Source: Iphione sp. A-MEVVRFRX5
Taxonomy: Eukaryota
DNA: 64,000 nt
Assembly (NCBI GenBank): GCA_976226885.1
Contig: OZ320323.1
Location: forward strand, 1,488,001 to 1,552,000
Reading direction: 5' to 3'
This document shows, one piece after another, positions 298 to 64,000 of this stretch. Position 1 is the stretch's first letter, and each line of letters opens with the position of its first letter. Below the pieces are notes generated by a model that made no database searches, was not told where the DNA came from, and saw nothing but the letters and a program-made list of their open reading frames with translations. The position numbers were made by a program, and so were the translations under genes.

Positions 298-30940
<30,643 letters not shown>

Positions 30941-32365: not shown

Positions 32366-33788
32366 AATTCTGCTCTTTTAAACGTTACAGGTGATTTTGA
32401 ATTGTTGGTGAAGCGTTATTAGGTATGCCCTGACTCCCCCTGTGTATGTTGGTTGGAATTTCTGAAGAATACAGTGCTGAACCAGTGAACAACAAAAGGG
32501 TTGTCGCATTCTTTAATGTCTGAATGACACTTTTATGCGAAATGCGACAGGTTGCCCAGCTCTGGTTGGCGTGACAATGACAATGATTTTATTCTCTATA
32601 CCGGTATTTCCCTTTTTCCTAGATTGAATTTTTGCGACGAGGCCATTTATCCTAATTATGAGAGGAGTATTCTCCATCCATTATATTCAGACCCTTGGGT
32701 GAGATTGAGTTTAATCGAGGCTGTTTCTCATATCCTGTGCCTTTTCAGAGTTTGGTGGTTGATATAGATATATATATATTCCAAGACTTGAATTCTAAAT
32801 CCATTTTGATGAAGTGTTCAGTGGTGAGGTTTTTACCTCCTTCTTTCTTTATGTCATACAGATGGTGTCTAAATCTGTACTTTAATCTCAGCTTTGTTTG
32901 TCTAACCTAGTTATAATACCACAACTGTTGCATGATATTGCCTATATTAAATTACTGCTGTTGCAGTTGCTGTGTGTTTTACAATGTATTTTCTGCTGGT
33001 TGTACCGCTCTTTAATTGTTTGTCAGTGTTTATAAGTGGGCAGTAGGCCCTATCTGCATTTTGAATTGTTGCAGATGTTATTGGCGTTTTCCATTTTTTT
33101 TTATATTCTGTATATCTTCCTCTCATTAATATATCTCTCAAGTTGGTTGGTTTCTTATAGGCTATTATTAGTTGTTGGTTTGCCAGTTCTCTCATACATC
33201 TTGATCTCTTTAGATCATCCCAATTCTTGCTTACTGTGGTATTCAGGTGATTATTCTCTGGTTGATATTTGTTGACTAGTATACTTGAGGGTTGGTCTGC
33301 ATGTGGGGTATTTTTGGATTTCTCGTTATCTTCACTATTCTTTTTTTTTCTAGTAATGATTGTCTTGATTTTTTGCTGGCTTCATGAAGCACCATGGCTA
33401 TCAGGTTGTTTGGATAGCTTCTTGTGTGGACCCCTTTTGCCTTAGTGATTGCATGAGTTATGAATGTATCTTCTTTACTGCAGATGCGTCTGATTCTTAA
33501 AAATTGGCTGTATGGTATATTCCTTTACATTTTGTATGGGTGTGCTGACTTGAAGTGGAGTAAGTTTGTTACATCTGTTTCTTTTTGTGTATAATGACGA
33601 TTGAATCTCTCCTTTTTTGTCCCGTTTGACTAAAGTGTCTAGGAATTCTACCCTTTCTTGCGATGTCTTAACAGTGAATGTAAAACCTTTTTGTTATTTA
33701 TTTACAAACTTTTCTTAATGTAATTATTCAAGCAAAACCCAAACAACTCAGTCAGGTTAATTGTTGTTTAATCAATCTTGGTTGTACA

Positions 33789-33829
33789 GCTCAACGTTTC
33801 GGACTTAAAGTTAGTCCTTCATCAGGAGC
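33789..33829 (-). ncRNA. Minimal type I hammerhead ribozyme motif (PLE pLTR type)
   Basis: Minus strand GCTC-CTGATGA-A-GGACT-aacttta-AGTCC-GAAA-CG-TT-GAGC: intact core, 5-bp stem II, stem I GCTC/GAGC, palindromic AACGTT in place of stem III. Confidence 0.8.
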
Positions 33830-34974
33830 AATGTGATCCATGGTAAATTATGACAGCTGAGGTAGAACATGTGGATAAGTTAATTTATGCATAACAAGGT
33901 CAAAGGTCGTAACAGGTTAAAGTTCAAGGTTGACTTCATGGCAGTCAAATCTCACAGGGTGGAAAAATTTTTTTTTTCGAATCTCACAGGGTGGAATTTT
34001 TTTTTTTTTTTTATAAAACTTTTTATAAACTTGTCTAGATTCTCTTGGCCATGTGGAAATTTTTTTTTTTTTTATAAAACTTTTTATAAACTTGTCTAGA
34101 TTCTCTTGGCCATGTGGCCATATTAGGAAGATATCATCTGTGAATCTTGCGTACATTGAGGGTTGTAGGTCTTCGGTGTGTACATATTTGTCTTATTTGG
34201 CTCATAAATAGGTTTTCATAGGATGGTGCTACTCTTGTACCCATAACTGTACCTCCGATTTGTAGTTAAGTACTGTTCTTGTTAGTAAAGTGTTATTCGA
34301 GGGCTTCTTATGATCTTTCCTTTCTTCTTCTAGTTTTTCTTTACTGATTCGCTTCGCTTCTCGTTTGGGATGTTTGTGTATAGAGAAGTCACGTCCATTG
34401 TTACTAAGATATCCTGTGTTGTTTTCTTTGCTCTAGCTAGTTTTTTTTAAGTCTGTGGTGTCTTTGATATATAATGGGTCTCTGTCAGTGGGTGGAGGAA
34501 ATTATCTACATAGGCTGAAATTTTCTCTGTACAGCAGCCATTTGCTGACATTACGGATCTACCAAGTGGGGGTCATTTACCTTTGTGTATTTTCGGTAGT
34601 AGGTATAATTGTGGTGTCCTCGTTTTTTTTAATCAGTAAGTTTCCTATTTCTGGATCTAATTCTTCATGAACTGTTCTATATAGTTTATAATTTCTGAAT
34701 TGAGAATCTGGCTGCTATTTTCATGGCATGCTCGGTAGTGGTTTTTGTTACTTAGTTGCTGTAATGCTGCTTCTCTAGCTGTAGTCATGTCTGTCTCGTA
34801 TCACTGCCACTCCTCCCTTGTCGGCCGTTTTTATTGCTATCTCTCTGTTGCACTTTAGGGTTGACAGTGCTTCTTTTTCACTCTGGGTGATATTCTTATA
34901 TTTTGGTTCTCCTCTTCTGCAATTATCAAGTTTTATTTCGTTATTAATGATCATTGTCTCGAATAAAGATGGCC

Positions 34975-35476
34975 GGTAACCGGTCAATTGGGCCCGTAAG
35001 TCGATTGGGCCCGTCAACTGGGCCCATAGTCGGCGGTGGTGGCGTCGGCGGCGGCGGCCAAGGGAAGGGTCCCCTGACCTATCCCGCTCGCCGAAATATT
35101 ACTCAGAGCGGAGATTGTTGTCATTCACGTTCTTGCATCCACGTTCTTGCATTCACGTTCTTGCATTCATGCAATAAAGTTCGGAAACATACTCCTTCGT
35201 TATGTCTCTTCGATCGGGGCGTACACTATATAATAAAATGGGTAAAATTCTACTTTACCGGTCCCAAGGGAACTATTTTCTCTGTAACCTTGACCTCTGT
35301 GAATGTTACTGCTAACCCTAACCCTTACCCTAACCCAATAGAGCCAATGAAATGTACGTCTAATATAAGTCTTGCACTGAGTTTAGCGCTAATAGCCCTG
35401 GCCACTGTGAACTGTGTAAGCTTACGGGCCCAATTGACGGGCCCAATTGACTTACGGGCCCAGTTGACCAGGAATC
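34975..35476. mobile_element. 502-bp non-autonomous DNA transposon (possibly Merlin-like) inserted in the PLE ORF
   Basis: 8-bp direct repeat AGATGGCC at 34967-34974 and 35477-35484; ~55-bp imperfect TIRs built from gggcccgtaag/caattg subrepeats; removing it rejoins the PLE sequence. Confidence 0.7.
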
Positions 35477-36754: not shown

Positions 36755-38040
36755 TGACCATTTTCAGTTATTTTTCCCACTCCCACATGAGATGTTTTCT
36801 GACCCTACTCTGGCATTAAAGTCACCAAGTATGTAGAGGTGTTCCTTTTCAGGGGTACTCATAATCCTTTACATCAGGTGTTGCATTGAGAGTGGGAGCA
36901 TATGCACAAATAAAAAGGATCGTTCCAGTATTTAGTTGGAGACCCCATAATTCTTTCGTGGCAGTAGGTCTGAGTTGGACATGATGCAGGAGGCTGTTCT
37001 TCACCACAAATCCAACACAGTGTTCGTGTGGTTCATCCTGTTATTTTCATTGCCAGAAGGAGGTGGTATAGTCCCTTTCTTTTAAGGTGCCAGAGTGCCA
37101 GGCATGTTTGTTGTAGAGCAGGTATGTTGATGTTCAGTCTGCACAGTTTACAGTTGATGATGGCTGTTTTTCTAGTGTTGCTGATGTTCCTTGGGTCATC
37201 TGAGAGACCAGTTGTCATGGTCCAGACATTCCAAGTGGCTAGTTTGAGTCTTTTCATTTGGCTGTTGCAAGGATTTCAGTCAGTTTTTCAGGATGATTCC
37301 TTGAGCTATATGCACCCAGTGCATATATGCAGGCAAACTGTGTTGGGACAGCACCTTATTGGCTGGGTCCTGCCCAGCTTTGGTAGGCGGTTGCTGTCCA
37401 GTGGGGTGCGATGACCCCTCCTACTGATGAAACAGCCCATGGCACTCTACCCTACACCAATCGAGCTTGAGCTTATAACTGGTAACTGTCTGTTTTTCGT
37501 GTTTCCCTTGCTGTGGGTCAAGGCTGGAGTGTCCTCTCCAGTGTGCAATGCCTATGCAGGTGTTTGGAGACATTGGGTTGCCCATGCGTCAGTGTCCCCC
37601 TTTAGACCTTGCAGGCCTAGTGCAGAGGGCTGTTATGCAGTAGGTCTGGGATCTGCTTGGCTATAGGAGTTGCCAGGTTGCTGGTGGGGTTCATCAGTAA
37701 GCTGCCTTTGGGCTCCACACCAGATTTTCTGCTGGGGTCCAGGGGCATTCACAAGGTAGTGAAACTATTTGCCCATAGCGTGGGGATTGGTTCTTGTAGT
37801 GCTAGGGCATGTCCACTTGCCGATGGGCCTGCACACTGCAAATTTAGGGGCCAGTACTACTTCACTTTCAGCAGAGATTGGTGTGACATCTGATGCCTAT
37901 GTGTTACCATGAGGAGGCAGCAATTTAGGCTTGCTGGTGAAGAGGCTGTGTATTGGCAGGAGAGACTTATGCACTTGGCTCTCTTTTCATTGCAAGCTGC
38001 TAGCCTGTGGTGAGAGCTGAAAGCCAGAGTCATAGACACT
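36755..38040 (-). mobile_element. RTE-clade LINE 5' fragment (5' UTR + APE endonuclease start), decayed
   Basis: LKLATWNV.TMTTGLSDD...RKTAIIN..L.RLNINI.ALQ.T.LA and LYILGDFNARVGSE; no RT portion visible. Confidence 0.8.
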
Positions 38041-38264
38041 GCATGCTACTCCAACACACAGATTTGACTAGCTGACAACTACTTGTCACTTCCAGTGACA
38101 TTATACCTTTCTCTGCTAGTATATTCATAGTTTTTCTGCTGTCTCTTCCGGTGCACAGTTTATACAGTCTCATAAGCCTCCACATGTGGCAAGGTTGGAG
38201 AGGTTTCCACATGCAACAAGCTATGGTGGAAAGGGTGGCAAGGATGTACAAGGCGAGTGATGGA

Positions 38265-40290
38265 TTTATGAGTAACTGATTTATTTTTTATGAAAACTGG
38301 AGAATAGCAGCGTCATCCGCATATAAAAATGTTCCCCCCTTCTACCACCTCCACTATGTCATTTATGTAAATTAAAAATAATAGGGGATCTAAAAGGCTT
38401 CCCTGTGGTACTCCACATTTAATTTTCATTTTACTAGATAGATACCCATTGACTTTCACCTGTTGCTTCCTATTTCTTAAATATTCCGCTATTAGCCCTC
38501 CCATTTCTTTCCCCGAATATTTACTTACTTTTTGGCATAAAATCTCATGATCAAGTGAGTCAAATGCCTTTGCAAAATCTAAAAAGATCAGAACTACCCT
38601 TTTTCCCTCATTTAAGTTCTCTTGAGTATTTTGTATTAATCTGCCTATTGCATCTATTGTGGAACAGTCCCTCTGAAAACCATATTGATAGTCTGTTAAC
38701 ACTCCTTTGTCTTCTCGTTTTTTCCAAACTTGCTGATAGATAACCCTCTCTAATACTTTTGAACCTATTGGCAAAACACTGGTCTATACTGTCCTACACT
38801 AAATTTATCCCCCCCTTTCCATATCGGTGTAACAGTAGGTGTTTTCCAATTCTGCGGAATCTTTTGTGTATTATTTATTGTTTCTAGAATATGCATCATC
38901 TGGTGGAACGTATATTCCATACCCTCCTTCATGTATTACTTGAAATATTCCCGATGCCTGAGGCCTTCCCCTCCTTAACCTGCTGAATCGCCTCCCATAC
39001 TGCCCACCTGTCAAGATTTATCTCCTATTTCCTTCTTGGACCCACATGCCATTTTCATCAGGAACCCCTAATTTCTCCTGTATTCTTTGTCCAACCCCAG
39101 TAAAAAATGTATTTATTTCATCTCCTACTTTTTCTCCTTCAATCTCCCTTACCCCTTCCTTCAATAGCACTTTCCCTCGCTCCCTTCCACTACTCTTCAA
39201 TAATTTGCCTAGCTCCCCCCAATAAGCTTTTGGGTTGTTCCCTCTTGTGATGAGCAGTTCATTGTAGTATCTGTTCTTACTTTTTGTGATGGCCTTTGTA
39301 CACTCATGTTTCATTCTTATATAAGCTGTCCAATTTTCTTCACTTTTCTATCATCGCAGAATTTATGCAAACTCTTTTTCTTTTTCTTCATTAGGTATCT
39401 CTCTCGTTGATCCAACCATGGTTCATTGACCTTACTCCCATTAAACATTTTCCATGGTGCTACTCAATCCAAGGCTCTTATTATCCTACCCTCCTATAGC
39501 TGTACCATAGTATCCACATCTTGCGTCTCATAGAAATCATACCAGTCATATGTGTATATCTCTTCTTTGAACTGCTTATCAGAATATTTACCATAATTCC
39601 TGCCTTGAGTCCTCTGCACTGACCCTCTCTCTATCATTTCACTGCCTACCACTCCGATAACTCCAAAGTGATCACTAATCGCCATTTTTCTAACCACTAC
39701 ATCATTTTTACTTGTGGCCTTCCCAAACCAAACATCAAGCAAACTTCCTTCTCTCACATGAGGGTAGGTTATCTCTTTCACCTTATTTACAAGGCCATGA
39801 GTGAAACACATCTCTTCTAAGCTCCTCCGATCTTTGCTATGGTATAACATATTTGTTAACATCCTCAATTAATACTACTTCTTCATCCAGAGGGACATTT
39901 TGTAGCATGTTATCAATTGCCGTTATTGCTATCGCAACATTTCCCTTCGGCGGTCTGTATGTACATATAAAATATATTTTTCTTGCTCATGCCCTCCCTA
40001 TTTTTATGTGTACACACTCAAGGTCCTGACTATTGCTCACACTGGACTATTGGCTTTGATACCATCCCTCATATCCCCCCTCCCCTTTAGCCATCCTCTT
40101 CTCTGTCTTGTCTCAGTATGTTGTACCCTTCGCAAGCTATGGCTTGGTCTAAAATTCGAGTATGTAGCCAGGTTTCTCTTATCAGTATTACACCAAACTC
40201 CTCTCCCAGAACATGTCTCAATTCCTCTTGTTTTTTGAAGAGGCTCCTAATATTTAGACATATCACCTTCAGATTATCCATATTCATCTA
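38265..40290 (-). pseudogene. LINE ORF2: APE endonuclease + reverse transcriptase, truncated shortly after YADD
   Basis: LKVICLNIRSL, LIRETWL, RQDR, CTYRPP, LLDVWF, ISDHFGV; QYGFQ, VLIFLDFAKAFDSLDH, GVPQGSLLDPLLFLIYIND, frameshifted YADD. Confidence 0.92.
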
Positions 40291-40516: not shown

Positions 40517-41211
40517 CTATATACATGTGAACCCCCCGTTTCCTCCTAACCACTCCTTAAGACTCGGATATGGGTAATGAATTTTTTTCAATACTTCGAT
40601 GATTCTTCTTTTCCCCCTTTCGTTTTGATGACAGCCATCTGTCATGTCATGGTATTTTACAACATCTAGTCCTCTTACTCTTTTGTGTGTCATGGTACCT
40701 GCTCTGAAGGTAACATCTCCATTGGTATAGTTAAGGTACATGATATACTCATTTATATGCCATATTGCATTGTTCAATATAAACTGTTTACGGCTTACAT
40801 CATTCAGGAACCATCCACTGTTCAGTTTTATATTGTACCTAGATAGATTAGCTCCAAAAACAGTGGAGAGATAATAGTTCCTCCTTGGCAAAGCACTCCT
40901 CAAAATCTCATTTGCATCATGAAAACAACTCATTGCATGGTTTACCAGGTCACTCATGCTATCTTTTTGCAAGCTTACCAATACTCTCCCCACACCATCT
41001 ACCCGTTTTGCATTTTTTTCTGTCAAATTGCATATACCCCCCATTATGATGATCCCTTCTGCTTCTTCTAACGCAACGTCACTTCCAAAATCAAGTCAGC
41101 TAACTCCTCAGTTGAAAAACCGGGATATATTCTAATAACCAGGGGCAGGCCTGCTGCTTGCGCTATCTGATTCAAACCTCTGCCCCTTGAGTCAGCTATT
41201 AAATAAAGCAT
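40517..41211 (-). pseudogene. SGNH/GDSL hydrolase (esterase)-like ORF, one frameshift near 41070
   Basis: Block I MLYLIADSRGRGL, block II IYPGFSTEEL, block III IIIMGGICNL, block V TDGCH (DxxH). Confidence 0.75.
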
Positions 41212-41972
41212 TTTTGCAATCGCTCAAGTAAATAACAAAAGACCATTCTTATCTTGTGATGCCCTCTTGCCACCAGAACATCTGCTTAGTGTTGTCCTTG
41301 ATTCTTGCCAGTATCAGCTTCAAGGAGACTTCTACTCAGGTTCGGTCTTTTGTCTATCTTCACCACATCTGCTGACTGATCAGTCCACCCTTCTGCTGTG
41401 GAGTATAAAAATAATCAGGTTTTTGTACATTGCCATGCTTCTATATAGCAACAGCTCATCAGCCATCACGTATACTTTTCATCTGATGGTGATTTCAAGA
41501 TTTGTAAGGTTGAGTATTATTGGCAAGCTATCACTTGCTTATAGGTACATATATTACCTTATATATACATATCTTTTGTATATGACTCATGTTAATCTTG
41601 TAATCCAAATTTGAAATGCATGCTATCACATGCAGATTTCAACAATATCTTTATTTTCTTGGTTTACCTTTGTTGCTACTATACCTTTGGCTGCACAATT
41701 TGAGTGTTTAAAACCTTGTGCTCATCATCATTCTTCTCTCGTCCTGCACTGAAACATACATACAATTTACGCTGTTAGACCAAGCAACTAATGTATCTCA
41801 TCAGCCCGGGAAATTTTACTATTAATAAGAGAAAGCTATTAATATATGTCTTTACAAACTAACATGTTATCACATGTTTCAAGTACCCATTATAGACATA
41901 CTGACATGTTATCACATGTTCCATATGCATAGTATGTATTCATAGTAATTTCCATTACCCTCTTTAAAATTT

Positions 41973-43390
41973 CTATTGATCCTCTGCTCCTCCCACCGCC
42001 ATTTCCTCCTCCTCTCTGGCTTCTGTGCTACATAGTTCAGATCTTACTTCCGTCAACAACCGGCCTAGTACATTCTTACCCTTATACTCTGCTCCTTTTT
42101 TTAACAAATACCCAAAGCCTCCCGCAGCACCCAAAACATTGATCTACTAGCAGATATCAGTTCCTTTCCCCTTGTTGCTTTAAAGTTATTCCTTAGGCCT
42201 GGTAGATTATTAGACTTTGCTCTCAGAATGCCTTTCATGCATCTTACCCGTTCCTTCTCCCACGTGTTTGGCAAAGTTATCCTTTTCCCTATTGTGATCA
42301 ACTCTTGTGGTTCAGAAGTTGCCAATATTTCTTCTTTGGCCTTTATGTCATCTGCGTATGCTGCCTTCTCTAGCTGAAACGCCTGTTCAGCTCTTTTGAC
42401 TACCCTTATAGTCAAATGGCGCAATGTAAAAATTACTTAGACTGGCCTCCTTTCCATGGAATACAACTCTGGTGTCAGTGTGAACTTGTTTAGCCTCAGC
42501 AATTGACAGGTCATCCGGTAGATTACGCAGGTCATTAGCCCTGTATGGCATGTCATCAATGTACAATACATTGTTTGAAACCATTGCTTTGTATCCTTTG
42601 TTCTTAGCCAATGTCGCTATTGATCTCATTTCCCCTTGGACTTGTCTCTGTGTTTATGTCAAGTTGTCCCCAACCCAGATGTTTGTTCCCTTTAATTTTC
42701 CTCTGCTTTTCATTACTACCGCTTTGTCCTGATTAAGCAAGAATTTCACTATCACATCCTGGTGTCCTCGTACTGATTCTCTCTTTAGTTTATAGCATGC
42801 TGCTATACTTCTCTTATCGATGGAAACTCCCATTTTATGGAACAGCTCTTCTGCAATTGCATCTGGATCAGTTATTCTCCTCCTATGCCACTTACTATTG
42901 TGTTCGCACGTATTGAACGGTCCATCTGTTCCATCATCTGTCTCTGCTGCATAATTTCCTTCCTCAAAATTTTGTTCTCTGCTAGGACCTCTGCCGTTTT
43001 CCCCTGTAGCTCACGTCTGTCTTGATCCAACCTTTCTGTTTTCAATTCCAGTCCCGTAATTTGCTTCTTCAGCTCGCCTATACAGTCACTGCTTCCCTTC
43101 CATATGCCTTTAGCATCTTCTATACTCTTTTCCACAGATTCCATCCTTTTTTCATTCTTCTTCATCCATCTAAGTATGCTCCCCATCCCCAATTTGCGTG
43201 ATGTTATTGCGACTGGGCTGGCTGCACCCCGCTTTCTTTTCTGTCTCCTCTTTCTCTGTGGTTGCTCTTCTTTTCCTTCCTCCTCACACTGAGATAACTG
43301 CGATTCAACATCTGTCAGTCCCCGCAATATTTCTGTTATTGATTCATCCCCAGCATCATCCTGTCTTTCCTTCACATCCCTTGTGCCCAT
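41973..43390 (-). pseudogene. L1/Transposase_22-type ORF1 (coiled coil, RRM, CTD) fused to a C-terminal NADAR domain; three frameshifts and one in-frame stop
   Basis: Heptad region; SIRANTIVSGI; DVIVKF..KLKGTNIWVGDNLT; KAMVSNNVLYIDD; then FHGKEASLSNFY, AEQAFQLEKA, W...MKGILRAK, T.GKELI.AS..FW(G), GKNVLGRLLTEVRSEL (NADAR ~42033-42467). Confidence 0.85.
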
Positions 43391-44504
43391 CCCGTCTGTT
43401 TCCCCCTCTTGGCCTTCTATAGTTGTTTACATATAAAGTCTTGTGTGCTGTCTCGTTTGTTATGGCCTTGACCTTGCTCTCTTGCCTATACCGGTTAGTC
43501 TTCACACCAAATTTCAATTTAATGTATAGAAATTCAACTCTTTACCTTGCCATAGTTGGTCTCTACCTCTTTCCCTTTCACCCGCCTAGATTTCTCTTCA
43601 GTGGAGTTGTCGATATTATCCAATTTCAGTGTTAAATCAGGGGACTGGGCTCGGCACCACCTCTCTCTCAGGTTGCCATGGTGATGATTTTAGTGGTGGC
43701 CTTCTTTGCTTTAAGGAATTGTGGTCGTTACGATTCCTGGTCCACCTCTTCCAGGTATTTAAGGCTTTACGCACCCTCTGATAGACTAGTCTGTTCTCCT
43801 TGTTAAAGACCTGGGCAAAGTTCTTGTGCCTATCAAACCACTGCTGCATTTCCTTACTGCCCTCCACTCTGGTGGGAATTCGGCCTTACTTAAGCAGCTT
43901 ATGTTTTGAGCTCCCGGGGCTGTAGTAAGTATTTTAGGAGAACTTATAATAAACATGTCAAGATAATATTTGAGGACACTAAAATGTAGTGGAGGAAATA
44001 AGCATAATTTAAAAGGACGAAATGGGGGTAACAGGTTAGACCTGGAACACTGTAGGTATCCACATGTGACACATACCTTTTTGCGAGGATGGCAGTGAGG
44101 ATTCCACATGTGGCAATGTTGGAGAGGATTCCACATGCAACAAGCTATGGTGGAAAGGGTGGCAAGGATGTACAAGGGTGCCGAAGCTCTTGGGGCTGTA
44201 ATAAGTGTTGAGTAGATTCTAGGATTATGATATTTAAAATTGAAAGATGTTAGTGCCTCTGGGGGAAATTGTTTGGGGTAGTCAGCATAGCATTTGCCTA
44301 TTATAGGGTATTACACACCAGCTCACAACTTGCACTTGACCACTCTGTTGAGGGCTTTCTCTCTGCAGCCTCAGTTCCTGGTGCAGGGCATCTCTTTTTG
44401 GTGGCAGCATTTAAGGAAGTCAGGGTCGTATGATTCTTGGCCCACCTCTATTGGGTATTCAAGGCTTTATGCACCCTCCGGTTGACTAGTCCGTCCTCAT
44501 TAGA

Positions 44505-47300
44505 CTTCTCAACATTAAGCTTCATCTTGTTGTTTCACCACCTAGTTACAAGTTCCAGGTCCTGTTCCATACTATTAACAAGTTTATTATATGAGTTATT
44601 GCCATTTATCAGGAGTGCATCATCAGCATAGAGTATTATCTTCCCATTTAGCTTCAGATTTGCTATGTCGTTGATGAATACGAGAAACAAGAGGGCCCTA
44701 GCAGGCTACCCTGCGGTACCCCACATACTATATCAAATATCATCGATTCACATTCATTTGCAATGACTGTCTTCTGTTTTTTAGATACTCTCTTAACCAG
44801 CCTATCAGTGCCTTGAACCCCATTTCTCGTAGTCTGTGTAGGATAACACTGTGGTTTACACTGTCGAACGCTTTTCAAAAATCTAGAAAAATTGCTCCAG
44901 CCTTTCTCCCTTCATTTATTAAGTTGTGCATCTCATCAGTCAACACTACTATGGTGTCCGCAGGTCCCACCTGAACCCATACTGGTGCTCATATAATATT
45001 GCTTAATTTTATAAATCGATTGATTGATGTTGATACATGTATTTAAAAAAATAATATTCGTCGTAATGACATTATTCCTTGTCTATTTAATATTCTACTC
45101 TGTATGTAACTACTTCTTGTAACGATTTCCATTACCTGTTGTCAATGATATCTCTGTGCCTGATTTATAGAGACGACAATAAAAACAATCTCAATAATAA
45201 TTGCTCCTTTTCTAAATAGGTTATCATCTGCTCATATATGATTCGTTCCATCACCTTGGAGGAGCTCTTGCCCAGATTAATCTGTTTAATTGTGTGCAAT
45301 ACATGTTGTTCATTCACATTTTCCAGTTGAAATCCTTTCTTTCTCACATATGCCGGTAATAGGGGCTCTCCCATCTCTCTGGTCATTTCCCCGCCTATAT
45401 TTCCGAAGAAATCTTCCTACCTTCATGTACTAGTATCAGCTCATTTTGTGCTCCCTTCCCGTTACCAAACAGGTTGCGCACATAGTGCCAATACTTTTTC
45501 CATCCTTTTCGTAGGTTTTTAGCTTGCTGTTTACCAGTTCCCTTCTGTCCAGCCTTAGTACCCTTAGATACCTCTTTCGTGATGCTCGTACTCTCTCCCA
45601 GTACTTAGCAGATCTCGTCTGAGTATGCTCGTTCAGGGCATTTTCCACTACTCTGCTTGCCCTATTACACCTCTGGCTAGTGGGTACATATATGGCCCCC
45701 TCCCTTGTTTGTCTTTTGCGTAGTGGGCAAACTTCCTCTATTGCCCTTGTGATGTTTTCCTCTGTTATCCTCCACACGTCCTCTGTTTCTACTGTACCCC
45801 AGTCATAAGCTCTCATTATCGTGGCGTGGGTTTCCTACTCTGTTACTTGATGTCGGTTTCTAGTGCAAAGTGGTCACTTAGAGTATCTTTTATTACAGTT
45901 GTTTTTGCACATAGTCCTTTACTACAGAAACCGGTCTATTACACTGCCTCCCTTATCTGTCGGGTGGGTTACTTCATTTACCGTTAGTACTAGACCACCT
46001 TCAATTGCCCACATTTCGAGGGCTCGTTTACATTTGCTAGTTTTCAGATAGTCACAACTCACAAATAAAGTTACCTGTTACGAGACTTGGTAATTTTTCG
46101 GGCTTTTTCTTCATCACTCCCTGTAGAACAGATAGAAACGCTTCCCAGTCTCCTCCTCGGGCCATCTGTATACACAGATCAATGCTAGCTTCTCCCTTCC
46201 TTTTATATCATATGGGAGTAGCCATATATGATAGCCAATAATCTATTGGCTACCATCGTATAACATTGGTAGTTCCGCGTTTTTATTAGATACATGATAC
46301 TCTTGAGATGGTCCTTCACATATGTCAGTAAGCTGCCAACTTTCTTATTTACCTTTTGATGATTTCTAAATGTTTCATAACTGTGCCATTTCAAGAAAGA
46401 GGTGTGTTATCAGTTAGCCATGTCTCACTCACGACTATATTGTCATATGTCGGTCCATATCTCTGTTGGAGTTCTTCTTTCTTATGAAAGATACTATGAA
46501 TGTTTATGCTTAGGATCTTGGACATTCTGTATTATGTTTTGCATATTCTCGTAGCTTTCCGCACTTCGAATATTTTGGTTTCTAGTCAAGTAGTGGATCC
46601 TATCCATTTCAGCCAGTCTCCTCTTTCTTCCCAGTCAATGATAATGTGTGAGAAAACGATGCTGATTATTTTGGCACTGTGTAGCAGTTGTACAAACTGC
46701 TCTCCCATCTGACCCACTAAGTATACCATCCGATGTGATGTAGACCACTTAAAAATTGTTCCTCATCCCTTTTCATATTATTTACATACATGTCATAGCG
46801 ATACTCATATGCTGTTCATTTACTACCATCCTAGAGAGCTATTGCCCTCATTATAGCTCACTACCGTTGGTCATTACTGATACACTTGTAACTTCATATC
46901 TCACCTGCGTTATTGTACCTTGTGCCTTAGCTCCCTTTATGAAGTATGCTTGATAAACTCCTCACGGAGTATTACAAGTGTCACCTTCCCTTGCCTGTTA
47001 TAATGGCACCCATAGGACAAGTACCGGTGATTTACTGTGTTTCCCATTCCGTCTTCGATAAATCAGCGATTCTGTTCTTGGCATTGGTTTGCCATTGCTA
47101 TGATTAATTCTCACTATTTCTGTATTGACCCGTAGAGGAATCCTGTCTACTGCCCGCTGCATTTCATTGTCCCTATGAAAAAGGGTATTTGTCCTAAGAT
47201 AAGATACACATTAGTACTTGTACTTGCATACCTAGGTCGCCCAGCATACGTTCTAATGCTGCTCCCCTCGAGTCCGTTAAGATAAGATACATGACCTTAT
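44505..47300 (-). mobile_element. Second, more decayed CR1/L2-like LINE (SGNH ORF + APE-RT), internally deleted and 3' truncated
   Basis: MYLILTDSRGAAL (47293), VNTEIVRINHSNG, YGCHYNRQGK; APE remnants at 45860-46400; AIFLDF.KAFDSVNH, GVPQGSLLGP, LYADD, NKMKLNVEKS. Confidence 0.8.
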
Positions 47301-48905: not shown

Positions 48906-51398
48906 TGTTAGAGATGAAAGGACTTCCTCTTTGGTGGCACCCTCTTGCCTTTCTTGGGTGGTGAGCAAGCCATGGAGGTCCTAAGATGGGGCCCCCTCTC
49001 GTGTTCCACAGTGGAGCTGTCCTGAGGGTCATCCCCCCTCTTGCCTGTTTTGGTGCTGGTCTCTCCTCTGCCCCTCCACTGCCCTCGAACTCAAGCTGCT
49101 GATGCAGACCCTGCAGGGGCCACTCCCTTTTGCTCCTCTTCCTTGCAGCTTGTTGAGGCTATCTTAACATCCCCTTCCTCTTCTTGTTCCCTCAGGGAGG
49201 GTCCTTGGGCCACACGCGGAGGATCTTTGACCCGCTGTCCTTATAGAACTCGTAGTAGGACTGTCTAACCTTCTTGAGGAGCTTCTTCAAGGCCCCCTCT
49301 GCCAGATGCAGCTTGGTATCCAGGTGCCTCTGAACATCTCAAGTCTTGGTTTGGTTTGTTATTTGATGCCAATTCCAGAATGCCTTCAGCTGCTGATGCT
49401 TGTTTTGGACCGGCTTTTCTGGAAACCAGTTCTCTAGGGCATTCATCAGAATCCTGTAGTCCTGGATTGGATTCTGAAATGGGGAAAATGGAGTTATGAT
49501 ATGGGATGGCCAATACACTATTGAAACCCACTTAGCTGAAAATGTCATTTTAACGTCAAAATAACATTATTTTTAGGTTCCTAAGTTCAGCAAAATGCTT
49601 TTTGCCAAGTGGGAACCTACTTGTCCACTCTTGTATATCAATAATTGTCTTTTTCACCCCAAGTATTGCATCCTACCACTGTCATCAGGCAGACCTTACC
49701 CTGTACATTATATAATTCAACTGCATTTACAATGTTTAAAGGGTCACATGATGCACCAAGGCATTGGCAAAGTACTTTGCATTGGTGCATCAGGATGACA
49801 AATGAACATGAAGCCTTGAGACCTCATGCTGCCTTTAAAGGTATATATAGGATTATATCAATGCTATCTTACAATATGAACAGAATAGGACCTTGTCTCT
49901 GCGTACTGGAGAAGGAAGATCCCACAGTCGTATGAGTTGGACTGTTGTTGGCACTTTGGGAGACTGCCCTTGAAGGTATCAGAGTTGAACACCCTAGCAC
50001 CACACTTTTCTTTCCATTTGATCGCCCACTCTACCTGCAAATACCTGTTAGAGATGAAGAGACTTGTAAAATCAATTCATTTCCCATGAGGTTGCTAGTA
50101 CTAGTTATCATACTACTTACGTGACTAACACCATGAAAGAAACCATCAAATACTTGACTTACTTCCACAGTATTTGAAAAACCATTCCTCTTCTCTTCTC
50201 ATCTCTGTGTGAGTCGAATATGAGGATGTATGGTCTGAAAGGTAAAGTTGGTTTGTTTCACAAACTGGTTTTGACTCTTAATTACATTTGAAGTGTTTCA
50301 ACAAAGTCACATGACAGTATGGTCTAATACAAACTTGCTGTTTTATGCCTCTTTTCTTGGACTCCTTTTCAGTAGGGTCTTGGATGAGCACTGGCTGCCC
50401 CTCCCCTGTTTGGCCTTCAAGTGTCTGGTTTCAGGTGTCCCTGAAAATGGGCTAGCCAGCAGTCCAATAAATATAACTCGTGATGATCCAGAAATGGTGC
50501 TGGCCAATTGACATCTTCCTTACTGTCCTGGTGCGAGCTGCACCATTCCCGATATATCTGCATGGCCCATTTACTGGCATGTTGTTTGTTTGGAGGAATT
50601 TGTTTCTGTATTTGCTCTTTGAGCTGCTGGCATGACAGGTTCATGTAGCTCCATTGTTCCCCCCACCTCAACGTAATGTCCCCACCCTTGAGGGTGTGGA
50701 TGCTTTGCTGCCTCCCTCCCCAGGGGGGGTGCCTGACAACATAAAGGCCATCTCATCCCCAAACAAGTTGACTAGTACATACTGGACCTCCACTTCTTGG
50801 GAGAGTACCGAGGGCACTCCTCCACTCCTTTGCAAGATTGTCTTCATCACTCAAGGCATCAAGGGTTGGTGACAGGCTTGGTGTTGATAGCTGGGAAGCC
50901 TGCTTAGTCAGCTGCATGGTTGAAGCCATGTAAGTTGATGTTTGCTGGAGAGATCTCTCTCCTTCTTCCCCTTAGGGGTCTGCTTCCTCTTTGGTGGCAC
51001 CCTCTTGCCTTTCTTGGGTGGTGAGCAAGCCATGGAGGTGCTAAGACGGGGCCCCCTCTCGTGTTCCACAGTGGAGCTGTCCTGAGGGTCATCCCCCCTC
51101 TTGCCTGTTTTGGTGCTGGTCTCTCCTCTGCCCCTCCACTGCCCTCGAACTCGAGCTGCTGATGCAGACCCTGCAGGGGCCATTCCCTTTTGCTCCTCTC
51201 CCTTGCAGCTTGTTGAGGCTATCTTAACATCCCCTTCCTCTTCTTGTTCCCTCAGGGAGGGTCCTTGGGCCACACGCGGAGGATCTTTGACCCGCTGTCC
51301 TTATAGAACTCGTAGTAGGACTGTCTAACCTTCTTGAGGAGCTTCTTCAAGCCCCCCTCTGCCAGATGCAGCTTGGTATCCAGGTGCCTCTGAACATC

Positions 51399-52470
51399 TC
51401 AAGTCTTGGTTTGGTTTGTTATTGATGCCAATTCCAGTATGAATGCCTTCAGCTGCTGATGCTTGTTTTGGACCGGATTTTCTGGAAACCAGTTCTCTAG
51501 GGCATTCATCAGAATCCTGTAGTCCTGGATTGGATTCTGAAATGGGGAAAATGGAGTTATGATATGGGATGGCCAATACACTATTGAAACCCACTTAGCT
51601 GAAAATGTCATTTTAACGTCAAAATAACATTATTTTTAGGTTCCTAAGTTCAGCAAAATGCTTTTTGCCAAGTGGGAACCTACTTGTCCACTCTTGTATA
51701 TCAATAATTGTCTTTTTCACCCCAAGTATTGCATCCTACCACTGTCATCAGGCAGACCTTACCCTGTACATTATATAATTCAACTGCATTTACAATGTTT
51801 AAAGGGTCACATGATGCACCAAGGCATTGGCAAAGTACTTTGCATTGGTGCATCAGGATGACAAATGAACATGAAGGCTTGAGACCTCATGCTGCCTTTA
51901 AAGGTATATATAGGATTATATCAATGCTATCTTACAATATGAACAGAATAGGACCTTGTCTCTGCGTACTGGAGAAGGAAGATCCCACAGTCGTATGAGT
52001 TGGACTGTTGTTGGCACTTTGGGAGACTGCCCTTGAAGGTATCAGAGTTGAACACCCTAGCACCACACTTTTCTTTCCATTTGATTGCCCACTCTACCTG
52101 CAAATACCTGTTAGAGATGAAGAGACTTGTAAAATCAATTCATTTCCCATGAGGTTGCTAGTACTAGTTATCATACTACTTACGTGACTAACACCATGAA
52201 AGAAACCATCAAATACTTGACTTACTTCCACAGTATTTGAAAAACCATTCCTCTTCTCTTCTCATCTCTGTGTGAGTCGAATATGAGGATGTATGGTCTG
52301 AAAGGTAAAGTTGGTTTGTTTCACAAACTGGTTTTGACTCTTAATTACATTTGAAGTGTTTCAACAAAGTCACATGACAGTATGGTCTAATACAAACTTG
52401 CTGTTTTATGCCTCTTTTCTTGGACTCCTTCTCAGTAGGGTCTTGGATGAGCACTGGCTGCCCCTCCCCT
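51399..52470 (-). pseudogene. SENP6/7-like SUMO protease (peptidase C48) 3' exons, representative array unit
   Basis: End of exon Z (..RGIKQ, 52402), exon A 52226-52297 (PYILIFDS..QILW), exon B 51936-52107 (YLQVEW..PKCQQQSNSYDCGIFLLQYAE), exon C 51399-51536 (NPIQ..NWFP..K...L..FILEL*). Phases join; the catalytic-His exon is absent. Confidence 0.8.
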
Positions 52471-52479
52471 GTTTGGCCT

Positions 52480-52734
52480 TCAAGTGTCTGGTTTCAGGTG
52501 TCCCTGAAAATGGGCTAGCCAGCAGTCCAATAAATATAAGTCGTGATGATCCAGAAATGGTGCTGGCCAATTGACATCTTCCTTACTGTCCTGGTGTGAG
52601 CTGCACCATTCCCGATATATCTGCATGGCCCATTTACTGGCATGTTGTTTGTTTGGAGGAATTTGTTTCTGTATTTGCTCTTTGAGCTGCTGGCATGACA
52701 GGTTCATGTAGCTCCATTGTTCCCCCCACCTCAA
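52480..52734 (-). pseudogene. Crypton/ZMYM(DUF3504-associated)-like N-terminal fragment, one per array unit
   Basis: QQLKEQIQKQIPPNKQHASKWAMQIYREW...LYLLDCWLAHF resembles the IPxNTxxxTxWAxxxFxxW...LxxWLxxF pattern; recognised by eye only. Confidence 0.55.
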
Positions 52735-55570
52735 CGTACTGGATCTCCTTTGCCCGAGGTGGCTCTGGCTTTGATGCAGGCTGAGGTGGGCTGTTCTCCT
52801 CCTTGCTGGAGGCTGGCAGGGCCTCCGCTATTGTCTCCTGCTCTGTCCCCACCCTTGAGGGTGTGGATGTTTTGCTGCCTCCCTCCCCAGGGGGGGTGCC
52901 TGACAACATAAAGGCCATCTCATCCCCAAACAAGTTGACTAGTACAGACTGGACCTCCACTTCTTGGGAGAGTACCGAGGGCACTCCTCCACTCCTTTGC
53001 AAGATTGTCTTCATCACTCAAGGCATCAAGGGTTGGTGACAGGCTTGGTGTTGATAGCTGGGAAGCCGGCTTAGTCAGCTGCATGGTTGAAGCCATGCAA
53101 GTTGATGTTTGCTGGAGAGATCTCTCTCCTTCTTCCCCTTAGGGGTCTGCTTCCTCTTTGGTGGCACCCTCTTGCCTTTCTTGGGTGGTGAGCAAGCCAT
53201 GGAGGTGCTAAGACGGGGCCCCCTCTCGTGTTCCACAGTGGAGCTGTCCTGAGGGTCATCCCCCCTCTTGCCTGTTTTGGTGCTGGTCTCTCCTCTGCCC
53301 CTCCACTGCCCTCGAACTCGAGCTGCTGATGCAGACCCTGCAGGGGCCACTCCCTTTTGCTCCTCTTCCTTGCAGCTTGTTGAGGCTATCTTAACATCCC
53401 CTTCCTCTTCTTGTTCCCTCAGGGAGGGTCCTTGGGCCACACGCGGAGGATCTTTGACCCGCTGTCCTTATAGAACTCGTAGTAGGACTGTCTAACCTTC
53501 TTGAGGAGCTTCTTCAAGCCCCCCTCTGCCAGATGCAGCTTGGTATCCAGGTGCCTCTGAACATCTCAAGTCTTGGTTTGGTTTGTTATTGATGCCAATT
53601 CCAGTATGAATGCCTTCAGCTGCTGATGCTTGTTTTGGACCGGCTTTTCTGGAAACCAGTTCTCTAGGGCATTCATCAGAATCCTGTAGTCTTGGATTGG
53701 ATTCTGAAATGGGGAAAATGGATGGCCAATACACTATTGAAACCCACTTAGCTGAAAATGTCATTTTAACGTCAAAATAACATTATTTTTAGGTTCCTAA
53801 GTTCAGCAAAATGCTTTTTGCCAAGTGGGAACCTACTTGTCCACTCTTGTATATCAATAATTGTCTTTTTCACCCCAAGTATTGCATCCTACCACTGTCA
53901 TCAGGCAGACCTTACCCTGTACATTATATAATTCAACTGCATTACAATGTTTAAAGGGTCACATGATGCACCAAGGCATTGGCAAAGTACTCTGCTTTGG
54001 TGTATCATGATGACAAATGAACATGAAGCCTTGAGACCTCATGCTGCCCTTAAAGGTATATATAGGATTATATCAATGCTATCTTACAATATGAACAGAA
54101 TAGGACCTTGCCTCTGCGTACTGGAGAAGGAAGATCCCACAGTCGTATGAGTTGGACTGTTGTTGGCACTTTGGGAGACTGCCCTTGAAGGTATCGCCCA
54201 CTCTACCTGCAAATACCTTTTAGAGATGAAAAGACTTGTAAAATCAATTCATTTCCCATGAGCTTGCTAGTACTAGTTATCATACTACTTATGTGACTAA
54301 CACCATGAAAGAAACCATCAAATACTTGACTTACTTCCACAGTATTTGAAAAACCATTCCTCTTCTCTTCTCATCTCTGTGTGAGTCGAATATGAGGATG
54401 TATGGTCTGAAAGGTAAAGTTGGTTTGTTTCACAAACTGGTTTTGACTCTTAATTACATTTGAAGTGTTTCAACAAAGTCACATGACAGTATGGTCTAAT
54501 ACAAACTTGCTGTTTTATGCCTCTTTTCTTGGACTCCTTCTCAGTAGGGTCTTGGATGAGCACTGGCTGCCCCTCCCCTGTTTGGCCTTCAAGTGTCTGG
54601 TTTCAGGTGTCCCTGAAAATGGGCTAGCCAGCAGTCCAATAAATATAAGTCGTGATGATCCAGAAATGGTGCTGGCCAATTGACATCTTCCTTACTGTCC
54701 TGGTGCGAGCTGCACCATTCCCGATATATCTGCATGGCCCATTTACTGGCATGTTGTTTGTTTGGAGGAATTTGTTTCTGTATTTGCTCTTTGAGCTGCT
54801 GGCATAACAGGTTCATGTAGCTCCATTGTTCCCCCCACCTCAACGTACTGTCCCCACCCTTGAGGGTGTGGATGCTTTGCTGCCTCCCTCCCCAGGGGGG
54901 GTGCCTGACAACATAAAGGCCATCTCATCCCCAAACAAGTTGACTAGTACAGACTGGACCTCCACTTCTTGGGAGAGTACCGAGGGCACTCCTCCACTCC
55001 TTTGCAAGATTGTCTTCATCACTCAAGGCATCAAGGGTTGGTGACAGGCTTGGTGTTGATAGCTGGGAAGCCTGCTTAGTCAGCTGCATGGTTGAAGCCA
55101 TGTAAGTTGATGTTTGCTGGAGAGATCTCTCTCCTTCTTCCCCTTAGGGGTCTGCTTCCTCTTTGGTGGCACCCTCTTGCCTTTCTTGGGTGGTGAGCAA
55201 GCCATGGAGGTGCTAAGACGGGGCCCCCTCTCGTGTTCCACAGTGGAGCTGTCCTGAGGGTCATCCCCCCTCTTGCCTGTTTTGGTGCTGGTCTCTCCTC
55301 TGCCCCTCCACTGCCCTCGAACTCGAGCTGCTGATGCAGACCCTGCAGGGGCCATTCCCTTTTGCTCCTCTTCCTTGCAGCTTGTTGAGGCTATCTTAAC
55401 ATCCCCTTCCTCTTCTTGTTCCCTCAGGGAGGGTCCTTGGGCCACACGCGGAGGATCTTTGACCCGCTGTCCTAATAGAACTCGTAGTAGGACTGTCTAA
55501 CCTTCTTGAGGAGCTTCTTCAAGCCCCCCTCTGCCAGATGCAGCTTGGTATCCAGGTGCCTCTGAACATC

Positions 55571-56824
55571 TCAAGTCTTGGTTTGGTTTGTTATTGATGC
55601 CAATTCCAGTATGAATGCCTTCAGCTGCTGATGCTTGTTTTGGACCGGCTTTTCTGGAAACCAGTTCTCTAGGGCATTCATCAGAATCCTGTAGTCCTGG
55701 ATTGGATTCTGAAATGGAGAATATGGAGTTATGATATGGGATGGCCAATACACTATTGAAACCCACTTAGCTGAAAATGTCATTTTAACGTCAAAATAAC
55801 ATTATTTTTAGGTTCCTAAGTTCAGCAAAATGCTTTTTGCCAAGTGGGAACCTACTTGTCCACTCTTGTATATCAATAATTGTCTTTTTCACCCCAAGTA
55901 TTGCATCCTACCACTGTCATCAGGCAGACCTTACCCTGTACATTATATAATTCAACTGCATTTACAATGTTTAAAGGGTCACATGATGCACCAAGGCATT
56001 GGCAAAGTACTTTGCATTGGTGCATCAGGATGACAAATGAACATGAAGCCTTGAGACCTCATGCTGCCTTTAAAGGTATATATAGGATTATATCAATGCT
56101 ATCTTACAATATGAACAGAATAGGACCTTGTCTCTGCGTACTGGAGAAGGAAGATCCCACAGTCGTATGAGTTGGACTGTTGTTGGCACTTTGGGAGACT
56201 GCCTTTGAAGGTATCAGAGTTGAACACCCTAGCACCACACTTTTCTTTCCATTTGATTGCCCACTCTACCTGCAAATACCTGTTAGAGATGAAGAGACTT
56301 GTAAAATCAATTCATTTCCCATGAGGTTGCTAGTACTAGTTATCATACTACTTACGTGACTAACACCATGAAAGAAACCATCAAATACTTGACTTACTTC
56401 CACAGTATTTGAAAAACCATTCCTCTTCTCTTCTCATCTCTGTGTGAGTCGAATATGAGGATGTATGGTCTGAAAGGTAAAGTTGGTTTGTTTCACAAAC
56501 TGGTTTTGACTCTTAATTACATTTGAAGTGTTTCAACAAAGTCACATGACAGTATGGTCTAATACAAACTTGCTGTTTTATGCCTCTTTTCTTGGACTCC
56601 TTTTCAGTAGGGTCTTGGATGAGCACTGGCTGCCCCTCCCCTGTTTGGCCTTCAAGTGTCTGATGATCCAGAAATGGTGCTGGCCAATTGACATCTTCCT
56701 TACTGTCCTGGTGCGAGCTGCACCATTCCTGATATATCTGCATGGCCCATTTACTGGCATGTTGTTTGTTTGGAGGAATTTGTTTCTGTATTCGCTCTTT
56801 GAGCTGCTGGCATGACAGGTTCAT
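55571..56824 (-). CDS. Predicted open spliced chimera (Crypton-like N-terminus + SENP6/7 C-terminal half), ~210 aa
   Basis: Exons 56574-56824, 56398-56469, 56108-56279 and 55571-55708 join without a stop (GC donor on the first intron); expression unknown. Confidence 0.3.
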
Positions 56825-59688: not shown

Positions 59689-60942
59689 TCAAGTCTTGGT
59701 TTGCTTTGTTATTGATGCCAATTCCAGTATGAATGCCTTCAGCTGCTGATGCTTGTTTTGGACCGGCTTTTCTGGAAACCAGTTCTCTAGGGCATTCATC
59801 AGAATCCTGTAGTCCTGGATTGGATTCTGAAATGGGGAAAATGGAGTTATGATATGGGATGGCCAATACACTATTGAAACCCACTTAGCTGAAAATGTCA
59901 TTTTAACGTCAAAATAACATTATTTTTAGGTTCCTAAGTTCAGCAAAATGCTTTTTGCCAAGTGGGAACCTACTTGTCCACTCTTGTATATCAATAATTG
60001 TCTTTTTCACCCCAAGTATTGCATCCTACCACTGTCATCAGGCAGACCTTACCCTGTACATTATATAATTCCACTGCATTTACAATGTTTAAAGGGTCAC
60101 ATGATGCACCAAGGCATTGGCAAAGTACTTTGCATTGGTGCATCAGGATGACAAATGAACATGAAGCCTTGAGACCTCATGCTGCCTTTAAAGGTATATA
60201 TAGGATTATATCAATGCTATCTTACAATATGAACAGAATAGGACCTTGTCTCTGCGTACTGGAGAAGGAAGATCCCACAGTCGTATGAGTTGGACTGTTG
60301 TTGGCACTTTGGGAGACTGCCCTTGAAGGTATCAGAGTTGAACACCCTAGCACCACACTTTTCTTTCCATTTGATTGCCCACTCTACCTGCAAATACCTG
60401 TTAGAGATGAAAAGACTTGTAAAATCAATTCATTTCCCATGAAGTTGCTAGTACTAGTTATCATACTACTTACGTGACTAACACCATGAAAGAAACCATC
60501 AAATACTTGACTTACTTCCACAGTATTTGAAAAACCATTCCTCTTCTCTTCTCATCTCTGTGTGAGTCGAATATGAGGATGTATGGTCTGAAAGGTAAAG
60601 TTGGTTTGTTTCACAAACTGGTTTTGACTCTTAATTACATTTGAAGTGTTTCAACAAAGTCACATGACAGTATGGTCTAATACAAACTTGCTGTTTTATG
60701 CCTCTTTTCTTGGACTCCTTCTCAGTAGGGTCTTGGATGAGCACTGGCTGCCCCTCCCCTGTTTGGCCTTCAAGTGTCTGATGATCCAGAAATGGTGCTG
60801 GCCAATTGACATCTTCCTTACTGTCCTGGTGCGAGCTGCACCATTCCCGATATATCTGCATGGCCCATTTACTGGCATGTTGTTTGTTTGGAGGAATTTG
60901 TTTCTGTATTCGCTCTTTGAGCTGCTGGCATGACAGGTTCAT
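59689..60942 (-). CDS. Second copy of the predicted open spliced chimera
   Basis: Exons 60692-60942, 60516-60587, 60226-60397 and 59689-59826; offset 4118 bp from the first copy. Confidence 0.3.
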
Positions 60943-63900: not shown

Positions 63901-64000
63901 TTCTCTAGGGCATTCATCAGAATCCTGTAGTCCTGGATTGGATTCTGAAATGGGGAAAATGGAGTTATGATATGGGATGGCCAATACACTATTGAAACCC

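Follow-up and report, generated by a model that had tools for sequence, protein, structure and literature searches.

The window analyzed here, a stretch of 64,000 nucleotides (positions 1488001-1552000) from an animal genome of 1.18 Gb, was found by six-frame translation, Pfam and comparison with intact relatives to contain a dead, 3'-truncated copy of a LINE with a NADAR domain on its minus strand. Read in the direction of the element, a probable 5' UTR (43427-43682), its 5' end inferred from an ATGGC start that resembles those of intact relatives, is followed by ORF1, a separate middle ORF and Pol. ORF1 opens with an acidic stretch, a basic NLS-like motif and a coiled coil (42875-43426; translation and Pfam; 53-58% identity to the intact ORF1s of loci L023, L030 and L033), continues with an L1-type RRM and CTD (42474-42872; family HMM and tblastn) and ends with a NADAR in three pieces (42030-42470; PF08719) and an acidic tail with the stop codon (41973-42029; six-frame translation). 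The spacer beyond it holds three copies of a CATG-N6-CATG RNA hairpin, at 41905-41918, 41863-41876 and 41619-41632 (local pairing probabilities of 0.55, 0.98 and 0.99, respectively), and a conserved GATAAG motif (41248-41253) about 35 nt 5' of the ATG of the middle ORF. The middle ORF (40517-41217), recognized by comparison with intact relatives and assigned an SGNH/GDSL esterase fold by a family model and Foldseek, has one frameshift near 41083. The Pol ORF (38300-40290; APE 39659-40275, RT 38325-38893; RVT_1 at E 1e-18 and family HMMs) carries several frameshifts and is truncated just past its YADD motif. A 75-bp direct repeat (97%; sequence comparison) that is part of another repeat family flanks the element at 44103-44177 and 38179-38253; the second copy sits just beyond the truncation point of Pol, the 3' end of which is absent at that junction.

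Compared to intact relatives, ORF1 of the window copy is broken by three frameshifts (~42875, ~42405 and ~42132) and one in-frame stop (42654-42656). The first-pass annotation of this DNA had listed the two frameshifts within the NADAR correctly and had recognized the ORF1-NADAR; the frameshift near 42875, the stop codon and the separate SGNH-esterase ORF had escaped it. Elsewhere in the window, a tandem array of ~2.06-kb units (93-99% identical; two units make up a higher-order period of ~4.1-4.2 kb) occupies 48923-64000, and exons resembling a TOG/HEAT-repeat microtubule polymerase of the XMAP215/ch-TOG type were recognized by eye at ~15478-25694 (minus strand). Also on the minus strand are the remnant of a second, decayed CR1-type APE-RT (44500-46520) and, by eye, a decayed RTE-like endonuclease start (36800-37275) and a decayed Penelope-like RT/GIY-YIG remnant (32947-35098).

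The NADAR motifs read in the first pass were reproduced by six-frame translation of the minus strand: FHGKEASLSNFYIAPF in the frame of the CTD, AEQAFQLEK...W..ERVRCMKGILRAK...ELISASRSMFW after the frameshift near 42405, and GKNVLGRLLTEVRSEL after that near 42132. As predicted, the window pieces matched the NADAR profile PF08719, at 42104-42436 with an E value of 4.5e-11 and 43.7 bits (gathering cut-off 35.1), which places the domain within this family; a further match, at 41976-42137 to profile positions 142-162, had an E value of 0.006. Intact ORF1s scored 78-102 bits against the same profile in 8/8 cases. A profile of the ORF1 core built from 43 intact family members matched the NADAR structures of YbiA (2B3W, E 5e-22) and 8BAU (E 5e-21), and an AlphaFold model of the core of L023 (pLDDT 94) had the YbiA fold, with matches to 8BAU (E 7e-10, rmsd 2.5 A) and 2B3W (E 1e-7); by Foldseek the model also found L1 ORF1p (2YKP). 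The Transposase_22 profile PF02994, proposed as a second check, gave no match on the window pieces and only a sub-threshold one among intact ORF1s (E 0.08, 1/8). Identity of the RRM-CTD is based on the core profile, which matched the RRM-CTD of human L1 ORF1p (2LDY/2YKO) at E 2e-4 to 3e-4. Coiled-coil-type Pfam matches were found in ORF1 of the window and in intact ORF1s, and the order of coiled coil followed by L1-type RRM and CTD is that of a type II (L1-like) ORF1p. The Atlas clusters nearest to the ORF1 core were NADAR clusters, for which Annelida was the commonest taxon on 1-3 records only.

The NADAR piece had at least 150 matches in the genome, and PF08719 gave 4416 first-look candidates, of which 150 were scored. 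Together with the window, 80 loci fetched from the 150 matches made a set of 81; long open frames were the criterion for most of them, and a control group of 15 (L086-L100) was picked for short frames. Domains were mapped with HMMs derived from 7-9 of the same loci; the RRM-CTD was detected upstream of the NADAR in 78 loci, and the middle ORF, APE and RT were detected downstream in 75, 74 and 70, respectively; all five modules were present in order in 66/81 (the pairs L081/L100 and L072/L085 are segmental duplicates, not independent insertions). In the short-frame control the corresponding numbers were 12, 13, 12 and 10 of 15. A single stop-free frame spanned RRM-CTD and NADAR in 60 of the 80 fetched loci, and the three ORFs were unfused in all 38 intact cases. 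Pairs of elements with 87-97% identity, different flanks and poly(A) tails indicate recent activity of the family. These results show that the locus is a dead copy from a radiation, both large and old, of LINEs of CR1-group type whose three ORFs are separate, namely ORF1 (coiled coil, RRM, CTD and NADAR), a stand-alone ORF of SGNH fold, and APE-RT. The expectation that other copies would link NADAR-ORF1 to the RRM/CTD and to APE-RT was thus borne out.

Several single loci are recorded here for their own sake. The 5' ends of L023, L024, L030, L032, L060, L064, L073 and L074 start within 0-3 nt of ATGGCG, and the first four of these have AGACGTG 18 nt after it; we take these motifs to resemble the YY1 and DPE motifs of internal promoters. 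In L034 (985-9589) a DIRS-like tyrosine-recombinase element is inserted between ORF1 and the esterase ORF of a NADAR-LINE. A stand-alone canonical NADAR with intact catalytic motifs (176 bits; L133:1105-2091, minus strand, contig C22, ~27.636 Mb) clustered with non-LINE NADARs in the tree and is probably a host gene.

Relatives were also found beyond this genome. The HMMER profile of the ORF1 core retrieved 1953 representatives at E <= 1e-30 among 1.84 billion proteins, and 143 of the 151 public relatives retrieved carry RRM-CTD and NADAR. A plain homologue search gave 0 matches with the whole ORF1 and 1 with an alignment query, which in light of the HMMER result reflects the low sensitivity of that search. 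By metagenome scan 34 loci were obtained, 10 of them with RRM-CTD-NADAR (an earlier scan had given no relative). No esterase ORF was detected in the three metagenome loci in which a same-strand downstream Pol is visible (L145, L147 and L174), and thus the three-ORF layout is shown for this genome only. Other arrangements were present in the metagenomes: a LINE-like ORF1 with Pfam-supported esterase-NADAR-CCHC order (L161:2-1249) and, by eye, a NADAR followed by a GDS-type stretch (L160:135-2801, L163:314-2962 and L176:3013-4421). Among these layouts is also one in which an N-terminal domain of RNase H1 precedes the NADAR and an esterase-like part, and in L160 an RTE-like Pol follows. These other layouts count against a universal three-ORF form and suggest that NADAR and esterase have met repeatedly. 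An unrelated insertion of the NADAR piece, or its chance placement, at this one locus could have been argued from the broken state of the window copy, for which the 40 scored candidates included no close DNA sister (65-73% in Pol was the best match to an element); the shared stop-free frame and the public proteins with both domains refute it, and we regard it as exceedingly improbable. Taken together, the data support the view that the NADAR belongs to ORF1 of a LINE family as an integral domain, that it is linked to APE-RT, and that purifying selection acts on it.

The middle ORF of ~220 aa stands alone between ORF1 and APE-RT. Its family model (pLDDT 95.7) had GDSL/SGNH esterases as top Foldseek matches (E 7e-8, TM 0.57-0.65). 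Pfam searches of single middle ORFs gave no relevant family in 6/6, and Lipase_GDSL_2 was found in 8 of 50 members (best E 4e-5). Atlas neighbors were unnamed mollusc and annelid clusters and, at 0.95, clusters with a partial GDSL label. Matches of the alignment to haemagglutinin HA2 in a PDB sequence search were rejected as chance helix similarity, as the fold search gave SGNH instead. The Ser...Asp-x-x-His triad is complete in the window copy, with Ser in DSRG, Gly/Asn in GGICN and Asp/His in DGCH; family-wide, Ser was present in 29/56, Asp in 51/56 and His in 28/56. Among 49 loci with NADAR and esterase, both catalytic sets were kept in 14, only the NADAR Glu in 14, only the esterase Ser and His in 12, and neither in 9. 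By these residue counts, the putative esterase triad is lost independently of the NADAR Glu.

Pol of the intact elements is ~940 aa and consists of APE-RT with no RNase H and no CCHC (no knuckle was found in any of 46 Pol C-termini), and its RT reads VPQGSxLGP (dominant) and YADD. We take a QGCPxSP-type RT and a C-terminal CCHC knuckle to be the signatures of the L1/Tx1 clade. For an internal reference, 14 of 148 zf-RVT matches (L113-L126) were used; all 14 carry the CCHC knuckle, most show QGCPxSP, and their RTs form a separate clade (SH-aLRT 100) from those of the NADAR-esterase LINEs. An APE-RT of this length and composition fits the CR1 group (CR1/L2/Crack/Daphne/Kiri), and the nearest public RTs include PHD-APE-RT proteins, a layout assigned to CR1/L2 subgroups (PMC4120745; here and below, PMC numbers stand for excerpts of the papers). 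As judged from signatures and an internal tree, which holds no named Repbase references, the RT of the three-ORF elements is CR1-group-like and not L1/Tx1. Element 3' ends are AATAAA plus poly(A) in the clade of the window (L023, L024 and L030-L032) and short tandem repeats in L038, L042 and L046. Within the CR1-type set the same main groups were recovered in ORF1 and RT trees, which indicates that the NADAR fusion is old and vertically inherited there.

Unexpectedly, all 14 Tx1-type loci also bear an RRM-CTD-NADAR ORF1. These ORF1s form their own clade (support 100), and no esterase ORF was found in the 14 loci. Their NADARs have lost SN and, in 15/15 domains, E43, K50 and E125 (W/F/L at the E125 position, W in 12/15) and keep the fold, W133, and the G and N positions. 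A NADAR-only tree provided no root for the Tx1/CR1 split, as the outgroup did not fall on one side of a branch. In one of these loci (L117), ORF1 (1769-3241, minus strand) is inverted relative to ORF2 (3414-7523, plus strand), which may be a twin-priming 5' inversion.

We then compared the catalytic residues. In 8BAU, by which NADAR residues are numbered here, E43, K50 and E125 are mechanistic (PMC11543638); replacing the E125-equivalent Asp of the E. coli C7 NADAR by Ala or Asn abolishes efficient hydrolysis (PMC11543638), and phage NADARs with His at this position are active, so not every substitution of E125 kills the enzyme (PMC11125620). The window copy has Glu at the E43 equivalent (42388), Lys at the K50 equivalent (42367), Ser at the E125 equivalent (42154) and Ser at the D130 equivalent (42142); it thus retains two residues of a competent YbiA-type enzyme and lacks the acidic residue or His expected at the third. 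The Ser in place of Asp before FWG, already noted in the first pass, is real (42142) and, being clade-wide, is not a product of decay. Among 68 intact NADARs, the E43 equivalent was retained in 67 and K50 was K or R in all (64 K, 4 R), and the E125 position was E in 40, S in 15, A in 10, H in 2 and L in 1. All 15 intact members of the Ser group to which the window belongs have Ser there, as does the window itself. The Ser/His group is a clade by RT (support 98/96) and, together with L070/L082, by ORF1 (support 100); the Ala families sit elsewhere, which indicates that the catalytic Glu was lost more than once. In the Ser clade this Ser is encoded by TCA, TCG and TCT, and three codons for one residue argue that Ser is being kept. 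Other contact residues were near-constant in the 18 Ser/His/Leu domains (G78 17/18, R79 as K 18/18, W89 18/18, R93 17/18 and W133 16/18). With pairs usable at 0.15 < dS < 1.5, most others being saturated or too close, NADAR dN/dS was 0.05-0.08 across 2 pairs of the Ser clade and 0.03-0.13 across 5 pairs of Glu clades; RT of the Ser clade, at 0.07-0.09, was similar to its NADAR. The median net charge of the NADAR was +7 for Ser compared to +2.5 for Glu. Thus, the anticipated dN/dS below 1 and conservation of E43 and K50 were found, and that of E125 as Glu holds for 40/68 only. These comparisons show an intact YbiA-type NADAR in most families, with the catalytic Glu lost in the lineage of the window (Ser) and separately elsewhere (Ala, His and Leu), and the dN/dS estimates show a domain that remains under purifying selection despite this repeated loss.

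The first-pass annotation had proposed that the element packages an active ADP-ribose eraser in its RNP that undoes host ADP-ribosylation of RNA or cDNA during target-primed reverse transcription (TPRT). The E43/K50/E125 triad is intact in ~40/68 domains of this genome, and the E125 residue is Glu in 137 of the 147 alignable public relatives, which suggests that catalysis matters in most lineages and counts against the explanation we favor below. NADARs remove ADP-ribose from guanine in both DNA and RNA (PMC11543638, PMC11833690), and CARP-1-type guanine transferases occur in bivalves, cnidarians, sponges and other bilaterians (PMC12945103). Against an eraser stand the replacement of Glu by Ser in the clade of the window, by Ala in 10 others and by W/F/L in the Tx1-type NADARs, with no sign of decay, and the published finding that NADARs act on base-linked ADP-ribose and were inactive towards its phosphate-end forms, among them the 3'-phosphate RNA mark of human PARP14 (PMC11833690). 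The model would need a host transferase that modifies bases; a search of the host for a Scabin-like guanine transferase gave no match, and the positive controls were equally without match. We consider an eraser that includes the lineage of the window unlikely; taken by clade, the eraser role is not supported for the lineage of the window, where we would call it quite improbable, and is a possibility, though less likely than not, for families that keep Glu. A binder is more likely than an eraser in the Ser clade, as judged from residue patterns, and the counter-defense reading would fit only the Glu-keeping clades. The Ser-clade NADAR may instead still be an enzyme, one whose chemistry or substrate has changed (it could act on a different N-glycoside, or use a water that the remaining Glu positions), since this position varies among active subfamilies (Glu, Asp and His; PMC11543638, PMC11125620) and the rest of the pocket is kept; the impaired Ala and Asn variants of the E. 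coli C7 NADAR (PMC11543638) and the presence of Ser at both acidic positions of that strand make this very unlikely.

The spacer between ORF1 and the esterase ORF has signals of its own. GATAAG lies within 90 nt 5' of the esterase ATG in 32/56 loci, the window included (shuffled mean 1.9; best 6-mer in 100 shuffles 11; kinship of the loci inflates the counts). It is tied to spacer length, as 17/17 loci without the motif have spacers of <=215 nt and 31/32 with it of >=278 nt. Its context in the family is MAG-ATAAG(T), which agrees with a 5' splice-site consensus bearing A or C at +1, or alternatively with a GATA site. A hidden fourth ORF that ends at GATAAG was rejected for want of a consistent open frame, as was a 3' splice acceptor before Pol (4/52 observed, 4.7 expected). 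Translation of Pol from a spliced, esterase-less RNA is disfavored because only 1/70 RT-linked loci (L080) is esterase-less and a clean deletion does not account for its 1.1-kb gap; the spacer of this sole locus with no esterase match has no long ORF.

CATG-N6-CATG was found 28 times in the spacer, compared to at most 2 for any other spacing, and in 8/8 Ser-clade loci compared to 0/40 others. Sixteen Ser-clade spacers hold 55 copies, 3 of them in the window. The inner position pairs on the sense RNA in 49/49 distinct units, 15 of them U-G (shuffled mean 37.6; the observed 49 reached in 0 of 20000 shuffles; relatedness inflates the counts). We take the motif to resemble the consensus of p53-family sites; such a reading is disfavored by the inner positions, which covary in the manner of paired RNA bases: U-G occurs among them and C-A does not. 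Rfam gave 0 matches among 7 elements. Our guess is that the hairpins serve packaging or translational control. Their confinement to the Ser clade is among the points for a NADAR fold that simply extends the RRM-CTD, in a structural or RNA-binding role unrelated to ADP-ribose, and that may recognize the RNA of its own element, for example these hairpins. The more basic charge of non-catalytic clades and the Tx1-type NADARs, which keep W133 and the G and N positions without any of the key residues, are consistent with such a role, as is nematode SNA-3, which uses NADAR domains, one without key residues, in an RNP (PMC9303266). By contrast, the residues that contact ADP-ribose are near-invariant in the Ser clade, beyond what the fold needs, and the Ala clade has no such hairpins. 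On balance we hold a purely structural role to be rather unlikely.

The best explanation as a whole, moderately probable in our judgment and built on sequence comparison, would be a three-ORF LINE in which the NADAR of the lineage of the window is a binder or RNP part and hydrolysis is dispensable. ORF1p would multimerize via its coiled coil and coat the element RNA via RRM-CTD, like L1 ORF1p, and would thereby bring the NADAR to the RNP. Families that keep Glu probably have a domain able to hydrolyze base-linked (guanine or cytidine) ADP-ribose on element RNA or cDNA. In the lineage of the window it may be a pseudo-enzyme in which binding of ADP-ribose or a nucleotide-like group persists; ligand binding is predicted from the retained equivalents of E43, K50, G78, R79, W89, R93 and W133 together with the more basic domain, and binding is preferred over cutting mainly because the domain was retained after repeated catalytic loss. 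The need of the element would then be NADAR binding or RNP structure, with hydrolysis dispensable. The separate esterase protein would probably provide membrane or lipid targeting, as proposed for ZfL2-1.

Parts of this layout have precedents. NADAR was not among the LINE ORF1 domains listed in the first pass, yet YbiA-family NADARs have been reported in ORF1s of Crassostrea gigas Tx1 LINEs (Repbase) and in an Ectocarpus Gypsy Pol, and NADAR in LINE ORF1 is thus already known (PMC12477816). A role in RNA processing was suggested for the C. gigas Tx1 ORF1, from which the elements described here differ by a CR1-group-like RT (VPQGSxLGP, no CCHC) and a separate esterase ORF (PMC12477816). The Tx1-type elements of the host genome share the ORF1 of its CR1-type elements but have a degenerate NADAR and no esterase. 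Like the type II (L1-like, Transposase_22) ORF1 of the CR1/L2 lineage, ORF1 has coiled coil-RRM-CTD upstream of the APE-RT of a Jockey-superfamily-type LINE; the C-terminal NADAR and the third ORF are not among the ORF1 types given for 448 elements in the excerpt of that study (PMC4120745). The middle ORF resembles the esterase ORF1p of ZfL2-1/CR1/RTEX in its SGNH fold, Ser-Asp-His and position upstream of Pol, but in those elements ORF1 itself is the esterase, preceded by a coiled coil (PMC3905857), and here the esterase stands alone beside an RRM-type ORF1 and has lost Ser and His in about half the families. The excerpt states that no esterase ORF1p with an RRM was found (PMC3905857); as this covers one protein, the three-ORF element extends the statement and does not contradict it. 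The NADAR has the same fold as the YbiA family (E. coli YbiA 2B3W and Phytophthora 8BAU; rmsd 2.5-3.2 A) and its contacts E43, K50, G78, W89 and W133, but is fused to ORF1p and, in the clade of the window, has Ser for E125 and D130. The Ectocarpus Gypsy Pol (PMC12477816) and nematode SNA-3 (PMC9303266) similarly recruit a NADAR to a retroelement protein or RNP, in another element class or a host gene and in another domain context. GDSL is described as a third ORF of LTR elements (PMC5408684), and the three-ORF LINE layout is absent from the excerpts of PMC13343379, PMC5408684 and PMC11203168. The literature searched contained no CR1-type NADAR ORF1 and no three-ORF form, nor one ORF1 shared by CR1-type and Tx1-type elements of one genome, nor LINE NADARs that have repeatedly lost their catalytic glutamate while under purifying selection; the layout may stand in Repbase Reports, Kapitonov and Jurka 2003, or de Souza and Aravind 2012.

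A broader scheme can be offered as a speculation to which we assign a low probability. Base ADP-ribosylation of retrotransposon RNA or cDNA would be a real invertebrate defense, against which LINEs of several superfamilies would repeatedly have taken up NADAR, often beside an SGNH esterase, first as an eraser and then, in lineages such as that of the window, as a catalytically dead reader or decoy; this would be paired with three-ORF expression controlled by the hairpins and by a non-spliceable U1-type site before the esterase.

Animal NADARs have no known physiological role according to the excerpt of PMC11125620. In this host genome they appear to be mostly LINE-borne, since nearly all those sampled from the 4416 first-look candidates are LINE ORF1s. 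The anatomy of LINEs is extended by elements with three ORFs, by an RRM-type ORF1 and an esterase combined in one element, and by an ORF1 type that a single genome carries in two superfamilies. Within the family, intact and recently active elements bear one domain in natural Glu, Ser, Ala, His and fully degenerate forms, so that the question of whether base ADP-ribosylation restricts retrotransposons can be put to a direct test.
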